Below, piece by piece: positions 51,389-60,709 of a stretch of DNA of 64,000 nt. The translations under genes were made by a program, and so were the position numbers. The notes below the pieces were generated by a model. That model worked only from the letters and a program-made list of their open reading frames with translations, was not told where the DNA came from and made no database searches. Position 1 is the first letter of the stretch. Each line of letters begins with the position of its first letter. The stretch comes from an uncultured Coriobacteriaceae bacterium (lineage in GTDB: Bacteria; Actinomycetota; Coriobacteriia; Anaerosomatales; Anaerosomataceae), in assembly GCA_964610065.1 (NCBI GenBank), contig CAZSUO010000001.1, positions 2,874 to 66,873 on the forward strand, written 5' to 3'.

Positions 51389-52723
51389 CTAGACCGTTCC
51401 GGTGGCGAACTCCCCGGTGAGGAACCACGGGTGCGCGCCTGTGATGCGGATCGGCTGGATCGTGCCCTCATACTCGGAGGCCGAGCGGCCCGCCGGCACC
51501 GGCACGTGCACCAGGCGGTTGTGCGGCGTGCGTGCGGACAGGACACGCGGGTCGCGCCGGGACGCACCCTCGATGAGGCATCGGTCGACACGCCCGACCA
51601 TGCGCTGGTTGGAGGCGAACGACAGGTCCCGCACCAGCTCGGCCAGCCGATCGAACCGGACCTGCGAGACCTCGCGCGGCACGGTGTCGGTCAATGACGC
51701 CGCGGGTGTTCCTTCACGCGGAGAGTAGATGAACGTGAATGCGTGGTCGAAGCCGACGCGCTCCACAAGGTCCATGGTCTGCTCGAAGTCCTCGTCGGTC
51801 TCTCCGGGGAAGCCGACGATGATGTCGGTCGAGAGCGCGATATCGGGTACCGCGGCGCGGAGGCGCTCGATGCGGGCGAAGTAGCTTTCGCGCGTGTAGC
51901 GCCGGTTCATCGCGGCGAGTATCGCGTTGGAGCCATGCTGGACCGGCAGATGCAGGTATGGCATCAACGCCGGCACGTCGGCCAGCGCGTCGATCGTGTC
52001 GTCCGAGAGGTCCTTCGGGTGGCTGGTGGCGAACCGGACACGCGGGACGCCTGCGTGCGCCACGGCGCGCAGCAGCTCGGCGAAACGCGGCTGTCCGTAG
52101 CGATCGCGCCCGTACGAATTGACGTTCTGTCCGAGCAGGGTCACCTCGAGCACGCCGTCGGCCACGAGTCCCGTCACCTCGGACACGATGTCCTCGAACA
52201 CCCGGCTGCGCTCGGGGCCGCGCACGGCGGGCACGATGCAGTAGGCGCAGTGGTTGTCGCACCCCACGGTGATGGGTACCCAGGCGTGCCAGGGATGTTC
52301 ACGCACCGTGGGGAGGTCGCTCGCGAACGCGTCGGTCCCGGTGAGCACGCGGGCGGTCGGGCTGCCCGACGCCGCGGCCTCGATCAGCGACGGCAGGTCC
52401 TCGATGTTGTGCGTGCCGAAGACGACATCGACATGCGGCAGCCTCCGCAGCATCTCCTCGCCGTCGCGCTGCCCCACGCATCCGCCCACCGCGATGATCA
52501 CCTCGGGACGCCCGCCGGTCTTGATGGCCTTGAGCGATGCTACCTGTCCGTACATGCGATCGTCGGCGGTCTCGCGCACCGCACACGTGTTGAACACGAT
52601 CACATCCGCCTCGTCGTCGGACCGGGCGGCGATGTAGCCATGCGATTCGAGCAGTCCGGCCATACGTTCGGAGTCGTGCTTGTTCATCTGGCAGCCGAAG
52701 GTATGGATGATGTAGCGGTTCAT
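51389..52723 (-). CDS. miaB: tRNA-2-methylthio-N6-dimethylallyladenosine synthase
   Basis: GCQMN, NTCAVRE, CDNHCAYC radical-SAM motif, LLGQNVNSY, TRAM domain. Confidence 0.95.
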   Translation of the reverse strand: MNRYIIHTFGCQMNKHDSERMAGLLESHGYIAARSDDEADVIVFNTCAVRETADDRMYGQVASLKAIKTGGRPEVIIAVGGCVGQRDGEEMLRRLPHVDVVFGTHNIEDLPSLIEAAASGSPTARVLTGTDAFASDLPTVREHPWHAWVPITVGCDNHCAYCIVPAVRGPERSRVFEDIVSEVTGLVADGVLEVTLLGQNVNSYGRDRYGQPRFAELLRAVAHAGVPRVRFATSHPKDLSDDTIDALADVPALMPYLHLPVQHGSNAILAAMNRRYTRESYFARIERLRAAVPDIALSTDIIVGFPGETDEDFEQTMDLVERVGFDHAFTFIYSPREGTPAASLTDTVPREVSQVRFDRLAELVRDLSFASNQRMVGRVDRCLIEGASRRDPRVLSARTPHNRLVHVPVPAGRSASEYEGTIQPIRITGAHPWFLTGEFATGTV

Positions 52724-53556
52724 CGTGTGCCTCTCGAATGGGCAGCGGCTTCAGCAAGGGCCTCGACCGCACGGTCGGGCGCGGCCGCGCAGCCCATATC
52801 GCCGCCTTCGCGTGGCGAACCGTGGAAGTCCGAGCCCCCGGTGGCGATCAGGCCGTAGCGACCGGCAAGGTCGGCGTAACGACATGCGGTGTCCGGGGCG
52901 TGCGAAGCGTGGAACGCCTCGATGCCGACGATGCCAGCGTCGATGAGCGACGGCAGCATGTCATCGATGTCATTCAGGCCCGGATGGGCGAGCACCGCAA
53001 CGCCGCCAGCATCCCTGATCCAGGCGATGGCGTCTGCGGGCCGGATGAGCGCCTTGGATGCAAAGAACGGGGCGCCATCGCCCAGGTAGCGGTCGAACGC
53101 GTCGTGCATGTCGCGCGCATGACCCGCCTCGATGAGCGCCCGTGCGATGTGCGCACGGCCCACGGCGCCGTCCTGATCGGTGTCCAACTCGAGCGTGTCG
53201 GGGTCTATTGCGATCCCTGCAGTGGCAAGCGCGTTGACGATACGCCGCGCACGCGCGCGTCGTCCCTCGCGGAGCGAGGCGAGCCTGGCCAGGAAGATCG
53301 CGTCGAGGTGATCGATGAAGTAGCCGAGCATGTGTACCGTGCGGCCGTCAGCGCTGGCTGAGAGCTCAACCGCTGGCACGACGGTGAGCCCGGTACCACG
53401 GGCGGCCTCGAGCGCCGGTGCGACCGCGGCGACACTGTCGTGGTCGGCGATGGCGATTGCCGGCAGCCCGAGCGTGAGCGCACGCGCCACGAGGGCCCCG
53501 GGCGGGAGGAGTCCGTCGGAGAATGTGGAGTGCAGGTGGAGGTCCGGGCCGGGCAT
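52720..53556 (-). CDS. PHP-family phosphoesterase (TrpH/YciV-like)
   Basis: DLHLHSTFSDG, DHD, VGRAHIA, AHP, GGSDFHG. Confidence 0.9.
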   Translation of the reverse strand: MPGPDLHLHSTFSDGLLPPGALVARALTLGLPAIAIADHDSVAAVAPALEAARGTGLTVVPAVELSASADGRTVHMLGYFIDHLDAIFLARLASLREGRRARARRIVNALATAGIAIDPDTLELDTDQDGAVGRAHIARALIEAGHARDMHDAFDRYLGDGAPFFASKALIRPADAIAWIRDAGGVAVLAHPGLNDIDDMLPSLIDAGIVGIEAFHASHAPDTACRYADLAGRYGLIATGGSDFHGSPREGGDMGCAAAPDRAVEALAEAAAHSRGTR

Positions 53557-53561
53557 GCGGA

Positions 53562-53837
53562 TCAGGGGTGCAGCGGCGGACGCGGCTCCACGAGCAGGCG
53601 GATGGCCGTGCGCTCTTCGCCGTTGATCTCGATGTCGGCGAATGACGGGGTACAGATGAGGTCGAGCCCCATGGGTGCGACGAAGCCGCGAGCGATGGCG
53701 ATGGCTTTGATCGCCTGGTTGAGCGCTCCGGCGCCGACGGTCTGGATCTCGACCACACCCTGCTCGCGGATGACGCCCGCAAGGGCGCCTGCAACGGAGT
53801 TGGGACTGGACTTGGTGGAAACCTTGAGAACCTCCAC
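53562..53837 (-). CDS. spoVS: SpoVS family protein
   Basis: SD AGGAGG, GTG 53837; LKVSTKSSPNSVAGALAG, GAGALNQAIKAIAIARGF. Confidence 0.95.
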   Translation of the reverse strand: MEVLKVSTKSSPNSVAGALAGVIREQGVVEIQTVGAGALNQAIKAIAIARGFVAPMGLDLICTPSFADIEINGEERTAIRLLVEPRPPLHP

Positions 53838-53985
53838 GGTGCCTCCTGGTGCGGAATCCTGGTGGTGTCGTTGCTGTGGATGTGGTGTGACCGAGGTCTG
53901 CGTCTGATACGGGTGCGCCGTGAATGGCGTGCGAGAAGTATAGCCCATCGGGTGCTCATCAAGCATCATCATGCGGTGCCGGGGC

Positions 53986-55062
53986 TCAGTCTTCCTTTTC
54001 CACGGAAAAGCGCACGGTGATCGCGTCGCGACCCACCGTCACTTTGGGTTCGCCCTTGAGGTTCAAGTAGTACCGTTCGGCGAGCACATCGAACGCGCGA
54101 CTGAGTTCGGCGCGGAACGCGACGAGATCGCCGTGGTGGATGCGCAAGGAGCGCCTGTCACGGTAGATATCGGGGGCCGAGGGTGCCGAAGGCTCGTCCT
54201 CGACCGAGAGCGATGTCAGCAGTGACTCAAGAGGTGCGAGTTCGCCTGCGAGTATGCGATGCGACGTGCGCTCTGAGACGGGAAGCGCGATCGTCTCAGC
54301 CGTGGCGGTGAGTTCCGCGGCATCGGAACACGCGGCCGGTCGCTGCCACACGCAGAGCCGATCGAGGTCTTCACAGAACATCAGGTCGGCGATGTCGAGC
54401 CGGTCACGGCCCAGGGCGTGGAGCGTGGCGAGGATCTCGGTGGGTGTGCCGAGGTAGATCTCGAGTTCGGGGTGCTCGCAGGCGAATTCCACGAGTCGCC
54501 GGATGATGTTGTGGGGTCCGCGCGCGACACGGAGCCTCCCCGTCTCATCGGGCTCCACAACGGGCCAGGTCGACTGGTCGGCACGCTCGTTCAGGTGGCC
54601 TGAGTCGACGACGACGCTGATCGACGCGCCCTTGTGCGGCGCAGAGGACGCGACGCGGGCCTTCGATGCGTTGGACCGCACGGAGAACAGCGCCATGCCG
54701 CGTCCGTGCACGCCCCACCGGTCCATGACCATGGTCTCGAGCTTCGACGTGACCCGGGGCTCGAACACGGCCTCCTGGAGCGCATGAGGGATGCCCACGC
54801 CATCGTCGATCATCGTGAGCATCCTCGTGCTCCCCTCGCGGGTGGTGGCGACGAAGATGCGCTGGGCGTGCGCGTCCCGGGCGTTCCGGAGCAGCTCGAT
54901 GATGACGTCCTCGATGCTGCGGATGTCGTGCTTCGCCTGCCTGCGCTCGGCCTCAGGCACACGGAGCCGGACGTATCCGTCACCAAGGGTCTCTTCGACC
55001 TTGAGGTAGCCATCGCCCGACACCGAAGTGACGAAGTCTATGAGGGGGTCGTGTTCGCTCAT
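53986..55062 (-). CDS. Stand-alone GHKL (HATPase_c) ATPase with an uncharacterised C-terminal region
   Basis: ELLRNARDA (N box), DDGVG (G1), FEPRVTSK, GVHGRGMALFS (G2). Confidence 0.82.
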   Translation of the reverse strand: MSEHDPLIDFVTSVSGDGYLKVEETLGDGYVRLRVPEAERRQAKHDIRSIEDVIIELLRNARDAHAQRIFVATTREGSTRMLTMIDDGVGIPHALQEAVFEPRVTSKLETMVMDRWGVHGRGMALFSVRSNASKARVASSAPHKGASISVVVDSGHLNERADQSTWPVVEPDETGRLRVARGPHNIIRRLVEFACEHPELEIYLGTPTEILATLHALGRDRLDIADLMFCEDLDRLCVWQRPAACSDAAELTATAETIALPVSERTSHRILAGELAPLESLLTSLSVEDEPSAPSAPDIYRDRRSLRIHHGDLVAFRAELSRAFDVLAERYYLNLKGEPKVTVGRDAITVRFSVEKED

Positions 55063-55103
55063 GATGTCACCCAGGGTGCCATGCCTGACCGTCCTTCTCA
55101 AGA

Positions 55104-55131
55104 GCAAAGGGACCGCATGCGGTCCCTTTGC
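55104..55131. terminator. Perfect 28-bp palindrome after rny (terminator-like)
   Basis: GCAAAGGGACCGCATGCGGTCCCTTTGC. Confidence 0.7.
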
Positions 55132-55175: not shown

Positions 55176-56708
55176 TCACTTCGCGTACTCGATCGAACGG
55201 CTCTCGCGGATGACCATGACCTTGATCTGTCCGGGGTACTGCAGTTCTTCCTCGATCTGCTTGGCGATCTCGCGGGCCATCATGAGCGAGTCCGTGTCCG
55301 AGACCTCCTCGGGCTTGACCATGACCCGGATCTCGCGACCCGCCTGCATCGCGTACGACTTCTCGACGCCCTTGTGTGACTCGGCAAGAGCCTCGAGCTT
55401 CTCGAGCCGCTTGATGTAACTCTCGAGCGTCTCACGACGTGCGCCAGGACGTGCGGCGGAGATGGCGTCGGCAGCCTGCACGATGACCGCCTCGACCGTC
55501 TGCGGCTCGACGTCACCGTGGTGGGCCTCGATGCAGTGCACGACCTCCTTGTTCTCGCCAAGTCGGCGGGCAAGGTCGGCGCCGATGACGGCGTGAGGGC
55601 CTTCGATCTCGTGATCGATCGCCTTGCCGAGGTCGTGCAGCAGTCCGGCGCGCTTCGCGAGTGCGGGATCGAGCCCGAGCTCGGCGGCCATGACGCCCGA
55701 GAGATACGCGACTTCGAGCGAGTGGTTCAGGACGTTCTGGCCATAGCTCGTGCGGTAGCGCAACCGGCCGAGGGTACGGACGATGTCGTGATGCAGGTTG
55801 TGCACACCGGTGTCGAAGACCGCCTGCTCGCCGGCTTCGAAGACCTGCTGGTCCACGAGGACCTCGGCCTTCTTGAACATCTCCTCGATACGGGCGGGAT
55901 GGATGCGGCCATCGGCGATGAGGTTCTCGAGCGTGATGCGGCCCACCTCGCGGCGTACCGGATCGAAGCTCGAGAGGATGACCGCCTCCGGGGTGTCGTC
56001 GATGATGAGGTTGATGCCGGTCAGCTGCTCGAAGGCCCGGATGTTGCGGCCTTCGCGACCGATGATGCGACCCTTGAGGTCATCCGAGGGGATGTGGACG
56101 ACCGACACCGTCGACTCGGCGGTGTGATCGGCGGCGACGCGTCCGATCGCGATACCGATGATGTTGCGGGCCTTGCGGTCCGCCTCTTCGCGCGCCCGCT
56201 GCTCGGCCTCACGAACGATCAGCGCGGCGTCGTGGTCGACCTCCTGGCGCACCCGGTCGAGCAGCACCGATTTGGCCTGGTCTGATGTCATACCGGCCAG
56301 CGACTCCAGGCGGCTCTTCTCTTCGGCGATCGCGTCTTCCAGGTCCTTCTCGCGCTTGGCGATCTGGCCGGCCTGACTCGACAGCTGGTGCTCACGCTTG
56401 TCGACGGACTCGGTGCGCCTCTCGATGGACTCCTCGCGCTGCAGCAAGCGGGTCTCCAGTGCGGTGAGCTCCTTGCGGCGCTCCTTCATCTCCTCATCGG
56501 CCTGAGCCTTCTGATGGAAGATCTGATCCTTGGCTTCAAGAAGCATCTCTTTGCGGGTCGTCTCGGCTTGCTTCTGAGCATCGGCGAGCATGCGTTCCGC
56601 GGCCTCACGGGCCTGGTTGGCCTTGCCTGCGATGATGAAGCGATTGATGACGATGCCGAGGACGACGCCGACGATGAGTCCGAGCAGTGCGGTGACCAGT
56701 GGTTGCAT
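55176..56708 (-). CDS. rny: Ribonuclease Y
   Basis: N-terminal TM, coiled coil, KH motif [15 protein letters not shown] motif [21 protein letters not shown]. Confidence 0.97.
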
Positions 56709-56984
56709 CGGGCGTGCCCTCCCTTCCGGGTTTCGATGTGCGAAATCAGGTCTCCATGCGGTGGCTGATCCTGCATTCGCCCGGACCCGGGAAGGGATGG
56801 TTCGATCCCTATGAACCCGAAAGCCGGGCACCACGCGCCCGGCAAGTACGATCACTCTATCGGTTCGACTGTGCGTATGGGGCGAATACACCACTCCCTC
56901 GGAAGCGGTGCCGCCCGTATCACCATGTAGAACCTCATACGAACCAGACAGCCTCACAAGCCCGCCGGTTCGATCGCATTTGCC
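56709..56984 (-). ncRNA. Candidate structured RNA (leader or sRNA) upstream of rny
   Basis: Follows TTGACG-N18-TAGGAT; closing stem 56984-56972 / 56853-56841, internal hairpins, terminator-like hairpin 56843-56820, SD-sequestering stem. Confidence 0.55.
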
Positions 56985-56990
56985 GTGCTC

Positions 56991-57020
56991 ATCCTACCTG
57001 CGCGTGATGTCGGGCGTCAA
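56991..57020 (-). promoter_or_regulatory. Sigma-A promoter upstream of the rny leader
   Basis: TTGACG (57020-57015) - 18 nt - TAGGAT (56996-56991). Confidence 0.7.
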
Positions 57021-57064
57021 GCAGACGCCTGTCCTGAGCAGCGGGAACCGATCACCGGGCGGCA

Positions 57065-57718
57065 CTACGGAACATCATCGTGATGATCGTCGGGCGTCGC
57101 CTCCGACGAGATCACGACGCGAGCGGCCGAAAGCGCATCGGCGATCGCGAATCCGCGTCTCACGAGGCGCGCACCAAGGCGATCGACGGTGTCGCCGGGC
57201 CGCACCGCGCGTCGTGCGGCTACAAGGGCCCGGTCACGCTCTCCTTCGGCTGGTGCGTAGGTGTCGACGAGCTCTGTGACCAGATCCTCCCCTAGCCCGG
57301 AGCGACGCAGCGATCGGACTGCACGACCGCGGCCGTAGCCGCGTCCGTCGACCAAGATGCGCGCAGCCTGTTCCGCATAGCGCCTGTCATCGAGAAGACC
57401 GGTATCGAGCAGCCGCTCGACCGTCGTGTCGATCGTGGCCGCCGAGTACCCATCATCCGCGAGACGACCGCGCATCTCTGTCTCCGTGCGCTCCCGGTAC
57501 GCGAGGAGCCGCAGGGCGCGCTCGCGGGCGGCCTGCGGCTCCACTTCGGCGATCTGTGCGGAAAGCTCGTCGAGATCGACGCGGGCGCCGACGTTGAGCC
57601 CGAGGGCGCTCGCGACCGGGCCGGGAACGGCGCGCCAGGAGACACCGTCGATTTCGATCTCTCGACGCTTCACACCCCGACGTGTATGGATCGCGGTTAT
57701 CTCATGCTCGCCGGTCAT
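57065..57718 (-). CDS. recX: Regulatory protein RecX
   Basis: ALRLLAYRERTETEMR, LLDDRRYA, YGRGR, LVRRGF; downstream of recA. Confidence 0.88.
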   Translation of the reverse strand: MTGEHEITAIHTRRGVKRREIEIDGVSWRAVPGPVASALGLNVGARVDLDELSAQIAEVEPQAARERALRLLAYRERTETEMRGRLADDGYSAATIDTTVERLLDTGLLDDRRYAEQAARILVDGRGYGRGRAVRSLRRSGLGEDLVTELVDTYAPAEGERDRALVAARRAVRPGDTVDRLGARLVRRGFAIADALSAARVVISSEATPDDHHDDVP

Positions 57719-57734: not shown

Positions 57735-58820
57735 CTACTTCGCGGCCTTCGGCGACTGCTTGGCGCCGGAGGCAGGCTCGGCGTCTGCCGGCGCGACTGG
57801 TTCGCTGGTGATTCCTGCGCCCCGGGCCCCTGGGAGCCCTAGCTTCTCGCGGATCTGCGCGTCGATGGTGTCACGTAGATCAGCGTGCTCACGCAGGAAC
57901 TCCTTGGCGGCCTCACGACCCTGTCCGAGCCGCTCCTCGCCGTAGTTGTACCAGGCCCCGGACTTCTGCACGATACCCTCTTCCACGCCGAGGTCGAGGA
58001 GGCTGCCTTCTTTCGAGATACCCTGGCCGTACATGATGTCGAACTCCGCCTGCCGGAACGGAGGCGCGACCTTGTTCTTCACGACCTTGGCGCGTACCCG
58101 GTTGCCCACAAGATCGGTGCCTTGCTTGATGGAGTCGATGCGGCGAACGTCGATCCGGATAGACGCGTAGAACTTCAGCGCGCGGCCACCGGAGGTGGTC
58201 TCCGGACTGCCGAACATCACCCCGACCTTCTCACGCAGCTGGTTGATGAAGATGCACGTGGTGTTGGACTTGTTGAGTGAGCCTGCGAGCTTCCGCATCG
58301 CCTGGCTCATGAGCCGCGCCTGCAGACCGACGGTGACATCACCCATCTCGCCTTCGAGTTCAGCACGGGGCACGAGTGCCGCGACCGAGTCGACGACGAT
58401 GACATCGATGGCGCCCGACCGCACGAGCATGTCGGTGATCTCCAGCGCCTGCTCGCCGGTGTCCGGTTGCGAGATGAGGAGGTCCTCGATGTCCACTCCG
58501 AGGCGTGCGGCGTACGCGGGGTCGAGCGCGTGTTCCGCATCGACGAACGCCGCGACTCCCCCGGTGCGCTGGGCTTCGGCGACGATCTGCAGTGCGAGGG
58601 TGGTCTTGCCGGACGACTCTGGACCGTAGATCTCGACGATCCGGCCGCGGGGAACACCGCCGATGCCGAGCGCGGCATCGAGGGCCAGTGAACCGGTGGG
58701 AATGGATTCGATCTGCTGGGTCGCCGCGTGCTCACCGAGGCGCATCAGTGAGCCCTTGCCGAACTTTCGCTCGATCTGCTCGCGCGTGAGGTCGAGCACC
58801 TTTTCCTTGTCCTGCTGCAT
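57735..58820 (-). CDS. recA: Recombinase RecA
   Basis: [45 protein letters not shown]. Confidence 0.98.
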
Positions 58821-58898: not shown

Positions 58899-59483
58899 TC
58901 AATCGCCCAGGGACATCACCGCGAACCGATCGTACACCGGACCATCCGGTGTGAGTGTCGACGTGTAGAGCATAACCTCGCGCACTGACATCGATCTGTG
59001 GGGCACGGGAACATGTTCAAGGGCCGCGTCCATCGACCGGGCGGCATCCGGCGCGAGGTGACGCGGGCGCCGGGCGCGACAGAGGGTGACATGCGGCGAG
59101 AAGCGTCGTGTCTCAGGCGCCGCCCCTTCGCGTACCACTACATCTTCAATCGAGCGCGCGAGCCGGATCGTGCGGTCGGCGCCGGCCTCCGGAACGGCCC
59201 AGATCATCGAGGCGGACCGCAACCGGGGCACGGCGCGGACCCTATCGATGCTGAGCGTGTACGGCACATGACAGCGTAGTGTGGTGTCGGCCGCCTCGGC
59301 ATACCGGTGCAGGACGCTCTCCGGGATGTCGCCGAGGAACCGCAGCGTCACGTGCAGATTCTCTGGCGACACCCACTTCTCACCGGCCCACGCGGGGTCG
59401 GCGTCCAGGCACGCGCGCCGGCAGTCGCCGAGCGCGCCTGTGATTGCGGGCGTGAGTGCGATCGCGAAGAACGCGCGAGGCAT
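58899..59483 (-). CDS. thpR: RNA 2',3'-cyclic phosphodiesterase (2H family)
   Basis: Two HxT motifs: LHVTLRFLG and FSPHVTL. Confidence 0.9.
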   Translation of the reverse strand: MPRAFFAIALTPAITGALGDCRRACLDADPAWAGEKWVSPENLHVTLRFLGDIPESVLHRYAEAADTTLRCHVPYTLSIDRVRAVPRLRSASMIWAVPEAGADRTIRLARSIEDVVVREGAAPETRRFSPHVTLCRARRPRHLAPDAARSMDAALEHVPVPHRSMSVREVMLYTSTLTPDGPVYDRFAVMSLGD

Positions 59484-60709
59484 CAGCTGTCCAGCAGCGA
59501 ACGCCTGAGCAGGTCGAGGGCGGTGGTCCGTGCCCGGTGTCGTACCATCGCGCGATCGCCGCCGTAGCGATGCATCTCGGTCGAGGTACCACCACCGGCG
59601 TGTGCCACCGCGAACCACACCGTGCCCAGCGGCTTGTCGGGGGTTCCTCCGCCCGGGCCTGCGATCCCGGTGGTGGCGACCGCGCGAGTCGCGCCCGGAA
59701 TCGCCAGCGCGCCACGCGCCATGGCGATCGCCACGGCCTCGGAGACCGCGCCGTGCGCCTCGATGAGCGCCGGATCGACTCCCAGGGCGGCTGACTTCGT
59801 TTCATTGGCGTACGCGACCACGGAGCCTCTGAACACCTGTGATGAGCCAGGCACATCGGTGAGCGCGGCGGCGACCAGACCGCCAGTGCATGACTCGGCG
59901 GTGGCAAGCGACGCACCGGACTCCGCTGCCAGGCGGATGACTGTGGCGGCAAGCGACGACCCGTCGGCGGAGTAACACGCGTCGCCGAGCGCGGAGCGGG
60001 CCGCACGCGTGGCGGCGGTGAGCTCGACATCGTCACCCGTGGAGGATACCAGGATGACATCGACCTCCCCCGGCCCGCCGAGCAGCGTGAGTTCGACCGT
60101 GGGGTACGAGGTGAGCAGCGGCAGCACCGCGTGGCCGGCATCGGACTCGGTGATGCCCACGCACTTCAGTGTGACAGGTGGTGCCGAGGCGACGCGCCCG
60201 CGAAGAACCTCGTGCAACATGGGGCGCATCTCGTGTGGAGGCCCGGGCAGTATCACCAGCGTGTGCCCGGCGTACTCCACGACCTGACCCGGCGCGGTGC
60301 CGGTCGTGGCCGGCAGCACCCGCGCGTCGTCGATCACGTCGGCCTGGTGGAGCAGTGAGATCGCCGACGCGGGATCTCGATGTAGCGAGATGCGCGCGCT
60401 CAGCGCAGCCTCGATCGCCGGGTCGCGTGTGAGGCCGCGCCCCACGACGAGTGCCGCGGCTTCACGCGTGACGTCATCATGGGTGGGGCCGAGCCCGCCC
60501 GTGACGATGACGAGAGCGCGGCGCGATAGCAGTTCGGCAAGCGCCATGACGATGGCGTCGAGGTCGTCGGGAACGGAGACCATCTCGCGGACGCTGTAGC
60601 CGGCGTTCACGAGCGCCAGCGCGACCTCGGCCCCGTTGGTGTCGAGCCGGTGGCCGGTCGTGAGCTCGGTCCCCACCGTGACGACTGCGGCGGTCTCGAG
60701 CGTGCGCAC
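59483..60709 (-). CDS. cinA: CinA (MoCF-binding plus PncC/NMN deamidase)
   Basis: VGTEL, TGGLGPTHDDVT, PGPPHEM, AESCTGG, GAVS, TGIAGP. Confidence 0.93.
   Translation of the reverse strand: MRTLETAAVVTVGTELTTGHRLDTNGAEVALALVNAGYSVREMVSVPDDLDAIVMALAELLSRRALVIVTGGLGPTHDDVTREAAALVVGRGLTRDPAIEAALSARISLHRDPASAISLLHQADVIDDARVLPATTGTAPGQVVEYAGHTLVILPGPPHEMRPMLHEVLRGRVASAPPVTLKCVGITESDAGHAVLPLLTSYPTVELTLLGGPGEVDVILVSSTGDDVELTAATRAARSALGDACYSADGSSLAATVIRLAAESGASLATAESCTGGLVAAALTDVPGSSQVFRGSVVAYANETKSAALGVDPALIEAHGAVSEAVAIAMARGALAIPGATRAVATTGIAGPGGGTPDKPLGTVWFAVAHAGGGTSTEMHRYGGDRAMVRHRARTTALDLLRRSLLDS

Follow-up and report, generated by a model that had tools for sequence, protein, structure and literature searches.

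Gene neighbourhood of the rny leader

The gene rny, encoding RNase Y, is located on the minus strand of a Coriobacteriaceae contig, and the gap that holds its leader sits between recX and rny, downstream of recA. The genes and leader features considered here are listed below in order of position in the window, by which the whole 64-kb stretch of DNA under analysis is meant.

55176..56708, minus strand: rny, RNase Y (TIGR03319, 737 bits against a cut-off of 454), with the SD sequence GGAGGG at 56722-56717 and the start codon ATG at 56708
56721..56796, minus strand: spacer hairpin reaching the SD, found at genus level only
56815..56843, minus strand: terminator-like hairpin T with U-rich tail (hairpin 56843-56823, then UUU)
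56841..56853, minus strand: 3' strand of P1, ending in GCC (56843-56841), which doubles as the 5' foot of T
56862..56934, minus strand: P3, an irregular arm carrying P4, with the base helix GGUUC (56934-56930)/GAACC (56866-56862)
56875..56879, minus strand: YAUA-type motif immediately 3' of P4, with gcRYAUMY as its consensus in the order; among conserved stretches it is the least paired
56880..56916, minus strand: P4, apical hairpin including a 10-bp stem with CGAG loop (56911-56888)
56941..56971, minus strand: P2 hairpin, variable in sequence and length
56972..56984, minus strand: 5' strand of P1, from fold and covariation, with a putative +1 at 56984, 6 nt past the -10 box
56991..56996, minus strand: -10 box TAGGAT, from the promoter scan and order-level conservation
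57015..57020, minus strand: -35 box TTGACG of a sigma70/sigmaA-type promoter, from the promoter scan and the order-level pattern TTGAC-17/18 nt-TAnnnT
57065..57718, minus strand: recX, the upstream neighbour, with RecX matches under the family cut-offs
57735-58820: recA, with a RecA match over the cut-off

The surroundings of rny are an RNA-metabolism neighbourhood. The stretch after rny (52720-55107, minus strand) contains a GHKL-type ATPase-domain gene, SpoVS (PF04232) and a PHP-family phosphoesterase, the last being RNase RNM-like with a match under the cut-off. A gene for a 2',3'-cyclic phosphodiesterase (58899-59618, minus strand) precedes recA, and an RNase J gene is found about 10 kb upstream of rny in the same genome (G000:C1:69936-71570). 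RNase E/G is encoded as well (G000:C32:7142-8356), in addition to RNase Y and RNase J. The same genome also encodes Rho.

Promoter and predicted fold of the leader

A first-pass annotation of this DNA had described a switch-like structured RNA behind a strong promoter, and all of the strings on which it was built were found on the minus strand exactly where it had placed them. The promoter TTGACG-18-TAGGAT (57020-56991) does precede the RNA and is the sole site of its kind in 56600-57200, where 0.1 would be expected. The proposed stem between 56984-56972 and 56853-56841 closes a domain of 144 nt (56984-56841) with a predicted energy of -67.2 kcal/mol and a z-score of -4.27, and 0 of 200 shuffles were equally stable. 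The MFE fold of this domain is a three-way junction of P1, P2 and P3, with a closing stem of 12-13 bp. Among the inner helices that had been proposed, the 10-bp CGAG hairpin and the GGGCG/CGCCC helix belong to the MFE fold, while CGUAUG/CAUACG is an alternative pairing only, because its strands are complementary but cross the MFE helix GGUUC/GAACC. This base helix of P3 is retained in 5 of 5 genus members and its register shifts across the order.

The string UCGAACC occurs three times in the leader, as had been noted, with 0.03 copies expected per 276 nt from its genome frequency. A competition of the first two copies for GGUUCG was not borne out: each has a separate partner in the MFE fold, and at least two copies are present in 3 of 89 leaders, all from the same genus. 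In one member of this genus (L021) the first copy is changed together with its partner. Similarly, the pairing of the spacer with the SD is part of the whole-leader MFE fold and is similar in five aligned genus members, but in the order at large the SD is barely more occluded than with shuffled spacers: it is unpaired at 0.26 against 0.31, and lower in 46 of 77 cases. The structured RNA had been given a length of about 275 nt; its conserved part spans only about 56984-56812, and the remainder of the leader does not share this conservation. The conserved unit is about 170 nt, shorter than the 276-nt leader.

Conservation within the order

In a survey of this Coriobacteriia order, presumably Anaerosomatales, rny was found in 137 of 146 genomes, and upstream DNA was taken from 93 of them. 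Just 12 of 61 relatives could be reached by DNA similarity, so upstream regions anchored on rny were used instead. The promoter TTGAC-17/18 nt-TAnnnT followed by the leader RNA is present in 89 of the 93 regions. Three of the four misses are truncated by contig ends, and the fourth has a 9-nt spacer and scores 68.6 bits against the model. In 89 of 89 leaders the P1 5' strand begins 5-7 nt from the -10 box, and the shared GCC and T follow 122-160 nt further on. The leader RNA has a length of 155-190 nt across the order and consists of P1, two hairpins and T.

An alignment of relatives had been suggested as a check, and covariation of P1 and T was found in it. Our alignment A1 holds 73 of the 89 leaders, after 12 close relatives and four atypical leaders (L025, L037, L071, L075) were dropped; analyses with alignment A2 use 74 of 77 matches. 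Over P1 and T of the 73 sequences, 88.8% of the cells are paired, with changes on both sides in 11 of 18 pairs; 0 of 500 shuffles were as high and slid controls reached 24-48%. For the full hairpin T, 97.1% of 584 cells are paired and both-side changes are seen in 5 of 8 pairs. The raw mutual information mostly reflected clade structure, so a tree test was used. Two to three same-branch compensatory changes were detected at 5 of 7 tested pairs (four in P1, one in T), a level that at most 2.6% of matched column pairs attain.

The interior of the leader is poorly conserved, with a mean column identity of 38%, except for gcRYAUMY 3' of P4. It is also poorly in register in A1 and A2, and RNAalifold recovered the inner P1 and T only. 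Support for P2 and P4 comes from per-sequence folding against shuffles, without column covariation: P2, counted at five or more expected pairs, recurs in 56 of 74 leaders against 20% of interior shuffles, and P4 recurs in 69 of 74 against 24%. RYAUA is present in 56 of 89 leaders, where 24.7 would be expected, and its mean unpaired probability is 0.5-0.6. The YAUA-type motif is a candidate nuclease or protein site.

A covariance model of the leader, R1, was built from the order leaders, so most of its order-level matches are expected by construction. Full-length matches were obtained in 63 of 71 order genomes, with 8 missed. All 63 share the strand of rny and precede it by 57-164 nt, and the present genome has a single copy. 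No second promoter-like site was found between T and the ATG in any of 80 leaders. This fixed place before rny, together with the lack of a second promoter, indicates that the leader would act in cis.

Two predicted, exclusive pairings of the shared GCC

The terminator-like hairpin was correctly seen in the first-pass annotation to share three nucleotides with the closing stem. The shared GCC (56843-56841) forms the last bases of P1 and the first bases of T; it belongs to the conserved core and is near-invariant across the order. In the alignment the three bases pair with the 5' end in 71-73 of 73 sequences and with the 3' arm of T in 69-73 of 73. An intrinsic terminator requires the bottom pairs beside its U-tract, and P1 extends into this foot of T, by 3 nt only. 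The two conformations are predicted at -78.9 and -78.3 kcal/mol at the present locus. Across leaders their difference has a median of -0.5 kcal/mol and stays within 2 kcal/mol in 61 of 78. Of 74 leaders, 11 have a T-foot pair probability over 0.8 when folded in full; without the first 14 nt the number is 64, a rise that is expected by construction. From covariation and modelled folding, a mutually exclusive antiterminator that overlaps the terminator appears to be present.

The hairpin T was missed by a consensus terminator scan because it is followed by fewer than five T in 8 nt. The U-tract after T has a median of 4 U in 8 nt over 80 leaders, and 34 of these have at most 3 U. For comparison, 33 post-tRNA hairpins of the same genome have a median of 3 in 8. 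The order-level U-tract is modest but no weaker than those after the tRNA genes of the same genome. T is absent or broken in 9 of 89 order leaders.

Leaders outside the order

A further 106 rny upstream regions from outside the order were surveyed, all sampled genomes lying within Actinomycetota. R1 gave no full-length match in 80 other-order genomes, and 7 of the 80 gave matches of 55-82 nt only. A hairpin of the GCCGRR..YYCGGY type is found within 130 nt of the start in 65 of the 106 regions, many of these with 6-8 U. In several other Actinomycetota classes, P1 opens with GGC, and its end is the GCC foot of a GCCGAG..CUCGGY terminator; this terminator carries 6-8 U and is positioned 20-70 nt before the start codon. 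The T foot pairs with the first 30 nt in 30 of 63 outside loci against 11.5% of 504 shuffles, the 63 scorable loci being those with both promoter and terminator detected, as the automated rules failed in 43 of 106. The overlap falls below a probability of 0.5 in the other 33 of 63 leaders, among them the very AT-rich f44. In family f31 all five leaders tested fail the overlap, and P1 abuts T without sharing bases. The f31 leaders (L159, L161-L163, L165, L166, L168) are about 100 nt long, with their own promoter, a closing stem and P2.

Leaders of the Eggerthellaceae type are about 110 nt long. Their P1 and P2 covary (93.1% paired, 6 of 12 pairs), and a U-tract terminator begins within the last bases of P1. 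AUAGA is found in 7 of 9 of these leaders, where 1.2 would be expected, and outside the class UAGAU shows the strongest enrichment of any 5-mer (28 of 54 against 10.4 expected); in both counts kin are not independent. Also where recX is not adjacent, the leader keeps its place before rny; in these loci a phasin gene, a pseudouridine synthase gene or an unrelated ORF lies next upstream. In L262 (3290-3610) a phasin gene on the opposite strand is inserted between recX and the rny leader.

Several divergent arrangements were also observed. In the leaders of family f38 (L290, L439, L447; about 130-330 nt before rny) the first arm of T is duplicated on its 5' side; the extra copy could pair with the 3' arm of T, which would be a different antiterminator topology, and T has no U-tract there. 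In L275 and L318, about 30-100 nt before rny, the first arm of the terminator has a choice of two 3' arms downstream, the near one without a U-tract and the distant one with it. In L250, L252 and L253, rny has a very short leader and the element is absent; their RNase Y is 61% identical to the present one, and their Bacillota-genus labels may be wrong. A scan of metagenomes with a 17-nt pattern returned mostly chance matches, with the hairpin at 1 of 80 loci, that one before rny.

Comparison with known RNA families

No match at gathering score to Rfam 15, riboswitch, T-box and raiA families included, was obtained in the 64-kb window. At E<=10 around the locus, chance matches to snoRNAs were found, inside rny and on the other strand, and at E<=0.5 there were no matches in 20 distant rny loci. 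That the first-pass annotation could not match the RNA to a familiar family is in agreement with the Rfam check of the locus.

Its suggestion of a 6S- or Ms1-like sRNA is not supported. The leader has no match to 6S RNA (RF00013, threshold 46.4 bits), and its fold is branched, not an unbranched rod with a central bubble. No match to Ms1 RNA (RF02566, about 300 nt) was obtained at E<=1 in the genome, with a 12.5-bit chance match in 1 of 5 genomes. The leader is like 6S and Ms1 in its own strong promoter, its approximately 165 nt and its paired ends, and length and paired ends are indeed what makes it resemble 6S. A paralogue of either RNA, binding RNA polymerase as an open-promoter mimic, is nonetheless extremely improbable here: neither model matches at the locus, the leader is a branched three-way junction with a closing stem of 12-13 bp, and the genome has a separate 6S gene on another contig (G000:C13:11051-11221, plus strand, equal to L015:1501-1671) that scores 56.6 bits, over the gathering score. 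In 5 of 5 other Coriobacteriia, 6S-like matches of 33-45 bits are likewise located away from rny. In one paper's account, 6S RNA is described as unidentified in the actinobacteria group save for one candidate (PMC11077062).

The riboswitch, another first-pass option, also lost ground. With an interior of low conservation and its lasting invariant bases in P1 and T, the leader is unlikely to be a metabolite riboswitch. As an ON riboswitch, a metabolite or ion would stabilise P1 against the terminator. The three-way junction agrees with such a device, and an aptamer closing stem overlapping a terminator is a common riboswitch layout. We give this reading very little weight, as few bases beyond P1 and T are invariant, the arm lengths vary freely, Rfam gives no match, and the sequence is not common to the classes (no full-length R1 match in the 80 other-order genomes).

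At the least, the leader is an uncatalogued covarying RNA family. No published account of this leader RNA was found in the literature searched, in which subscription papers were mostly outside coverage. The motifs of a 224-motif study are reportedly largely in Rfam.

Metatranscriptome contigs

The metatranscriptome data are contigs, unstranded and possibly including DNA. Contigs bridging T towards rny occur in 3 of 4 runs (three studies), which is a hint only, as they are unstranded and DNA may contribute. Contig ends were found at 56884 (two studies) and at 56912 (another), which are the two feet of P4; a hairpin artefact seems a likelier cause than processing. Among the contigs listed, none spans 56958-57287, and in run X2 none spans 56885-56984, which proves nothing. 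In X2, a biofilm run, 6S RNA has 1570 contig records with a summed depth near a million, and the 4-kb recA-rny stretch has 10. X2 is the one informative run of four; X5, X8 and X11 have no 6S pile-up, so they are uninformative on abundance.

These counts bear on a stand-alone sRNA of about 165 nt, made from its own promoter and ended by its own terminator. It would act in trans at a modest level, perhaps titrating RNase Y or RNA polymerase as a decoy, and rny would be expressed by leaky read-through. A terminator beside a closing stem is also the usual end of many small RNA genes, and the bracket of promoter and terminator and the paired ends would suit such an RNA. The X2 records (1570 on 6S against 10, in contigs of one informative run) argue against it, as do the 63 of 63 model matches before rny with none elsewhere and the low interior identity of 38%. 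The B. subtilis rny mRNA is described as about 64-fold enriched on RNA polymerase (PMC11077062), which would agree with such an RNA. We regard the stand-alone sRNA as quite unlikely.

Proposed mechanism

A new attenuator for RNase Y had been the remaining first-pass option, and it is the best supported one, with overlapping and covarying P1 and T, a fixed site and no second promoter. We propose that the leader is a terminator-gated attenuator with read-through as default and termination on opening of P1, most likely as feedback to RNase Y, and we assign this reading a probability of roughly 0.58 on sequence comparison and modelled folds. That the leader is a transcription attenuator with a read-through default is itself probable from the modelled folds. 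By prediction, P1 has already formed completely when the 3' arm of T emerges from the polymerase, and would hold the three bottom pairs of T. Because P1 forms before the 3' arm of T and T needs its bottom pairs, read-through would be the default, and the polymerase would then continue into rny. Once the P1 5' strand is cut off or displaced, T is predicted to form in full, which would release an RNA of some 165 nt. No upstream helix trapping the P1 5' strand was found, the pairing probability of the 5' strand with YAUA being 0 and covariation between them being absent. Until the P1 3' strand has been transcribed, bases 1-5 are predicted to be mostly unpaired, with a mean of 0.71 and values over 0.5 in 55 of 74. 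Several observations speak against an attenuator: the overlap is of 3 bp only, the order-level U-tract is weak and T is not intact in every leader, the overlap is not universal, and the trapping helix was not found.

If the leader is an attenuator, RNase Y is a possible, still tentative, trigger. It may open P1 by cutting or binding the single-stranded YAUA/UAGAU motif, which would result in negative feedback. In B. subtilis, RNase Y is described to cut its own 5' UTR and thereby to autoregulate, and the rny product is a membrane-anchored protein (PMC10303841). For RNase Y, a preference for weakly structured AU-rich sites and for G/A dinucleotides is reported (PMC11780869), and this preference may fit the exposed AU-rich motifs of the leader, by motif resemblance only. 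The internal motif differs between groups (RYAUA, AUAGA, UAGAU), which argues against an RNase Y trigger. RNase E/G, RNase J or Rho of the same genome could act on the leader as well.

A more specific form of the attenuator is doubtful. Here, RNase Y would cut the nascent leader, the P1 5' strand would be lost, T would complete and the polymerase would halt before rny; the locus would then represent a nuclease-triggered attenuator layout conserved across deep-branching Actinomycetota. A membrane-anchored RNase Y might draw its own gene to the membrane, making a co-transcriptional cut possible. In one study, cuts made by membrane-bound RNase E or Y during transcription are reported as rare, and closeness to the membrane did not by itself raise them; mRNAs of inner-membrane proteins are the stated exception (PMC11042359).

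The main rival of the attenuator is control by decay of the finished mRNA. The leader would then be a post-transcriptional autoregulatory 5' UTR in which T is a fixed leaky terminator or an RNase J roadblock; P1 would shield the 5' end until RNase Y cuts the leader and decay ensues, as for B. subtilis rny and E. coli rne and pnp. Its precedent in B. subtilis (PMC10303841) is joined by the start of P1 at the predicted +1, the single-stranded AU-rich motifs in the leader, the RNase J gene about 10 kb away, the contigs bridging T and the weak U-tract in the order. Decay control leaves the dual pairing of the shared GCC unexplained, and likewise the U6-U8 terminators 20-70 nt before the start in other classes. 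We consider it unlikely.

Relation to known regulatory leaders

Autoregulatory ribonuclease leaders are known from the E. coli rne 5' UTR, rnc and pnp, which act on decay or translation and are not known to work through a terminator, and ribosomal-protein leaders acting by attenuation exist. The rny leader is like these ribonuclease and ribosomal-protein leaders in being structured, in its fixed position before the gene of an RNA-binding enzyme, and in that structure is kept over sequence. It differs from the ribonuclease leaders in having no Rfam match.

The closest working analogue of the rny leader is cATT, the zipper-type attenuator of plasmid pLS20 (PMC13401043). As that paper describes cATT, the closing helix of a long folded domain captures the 5' arm of the terminator, as is proposed here, and the two states are of similar predicted energy (PMC13401043). 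Antitermination is the measured default of cATT, whereas the default of the rny leader is predicted (PMC13401043). P1 and T of the rny leader overlap by 3 nt, with the extreme 5' end of the transcript as the partner. The rny leader is a three-way junction before a chromosomal gene, while cATT is found in a conjugation operon (PMC13401043). cATT further has a weak upstream hairpin, SL-2, which is described to sequester the antiterminator strand (PMC13401043). The rny leader is set apart from the cATT class because SL-2 has no counterpart in it.

The rny 5' UTR of B. subtilis belongs to the same gene and has a sigmaA-type promoter, a 164-nt leader and AU-rich candidate cut sites (PMC10303841). 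Its control is described as decay via RNase Y and J1, and the word 'terminator' is absent from the main text of that paper (PMC10303841). The present leader, unlike that of B. subtilis, has a covarying closed domain and a terminator-like hairpin.

In many bacteria mRNA decay is initiated by RNase Y. The literature searched describes just one control of the enzyme's level, through decay of the rny mRNA in B. subtilis. A terminator-gated layout across classes of very different base composition would point to a second control at the level of transcription. If RNase Y cutting were the trigger, RNA decay capacity would be coupled to termination, a coupling undescribed in the literature searched. 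A shorter version of the leader is located before rny in Eggerthellaceae, which include cultured species.
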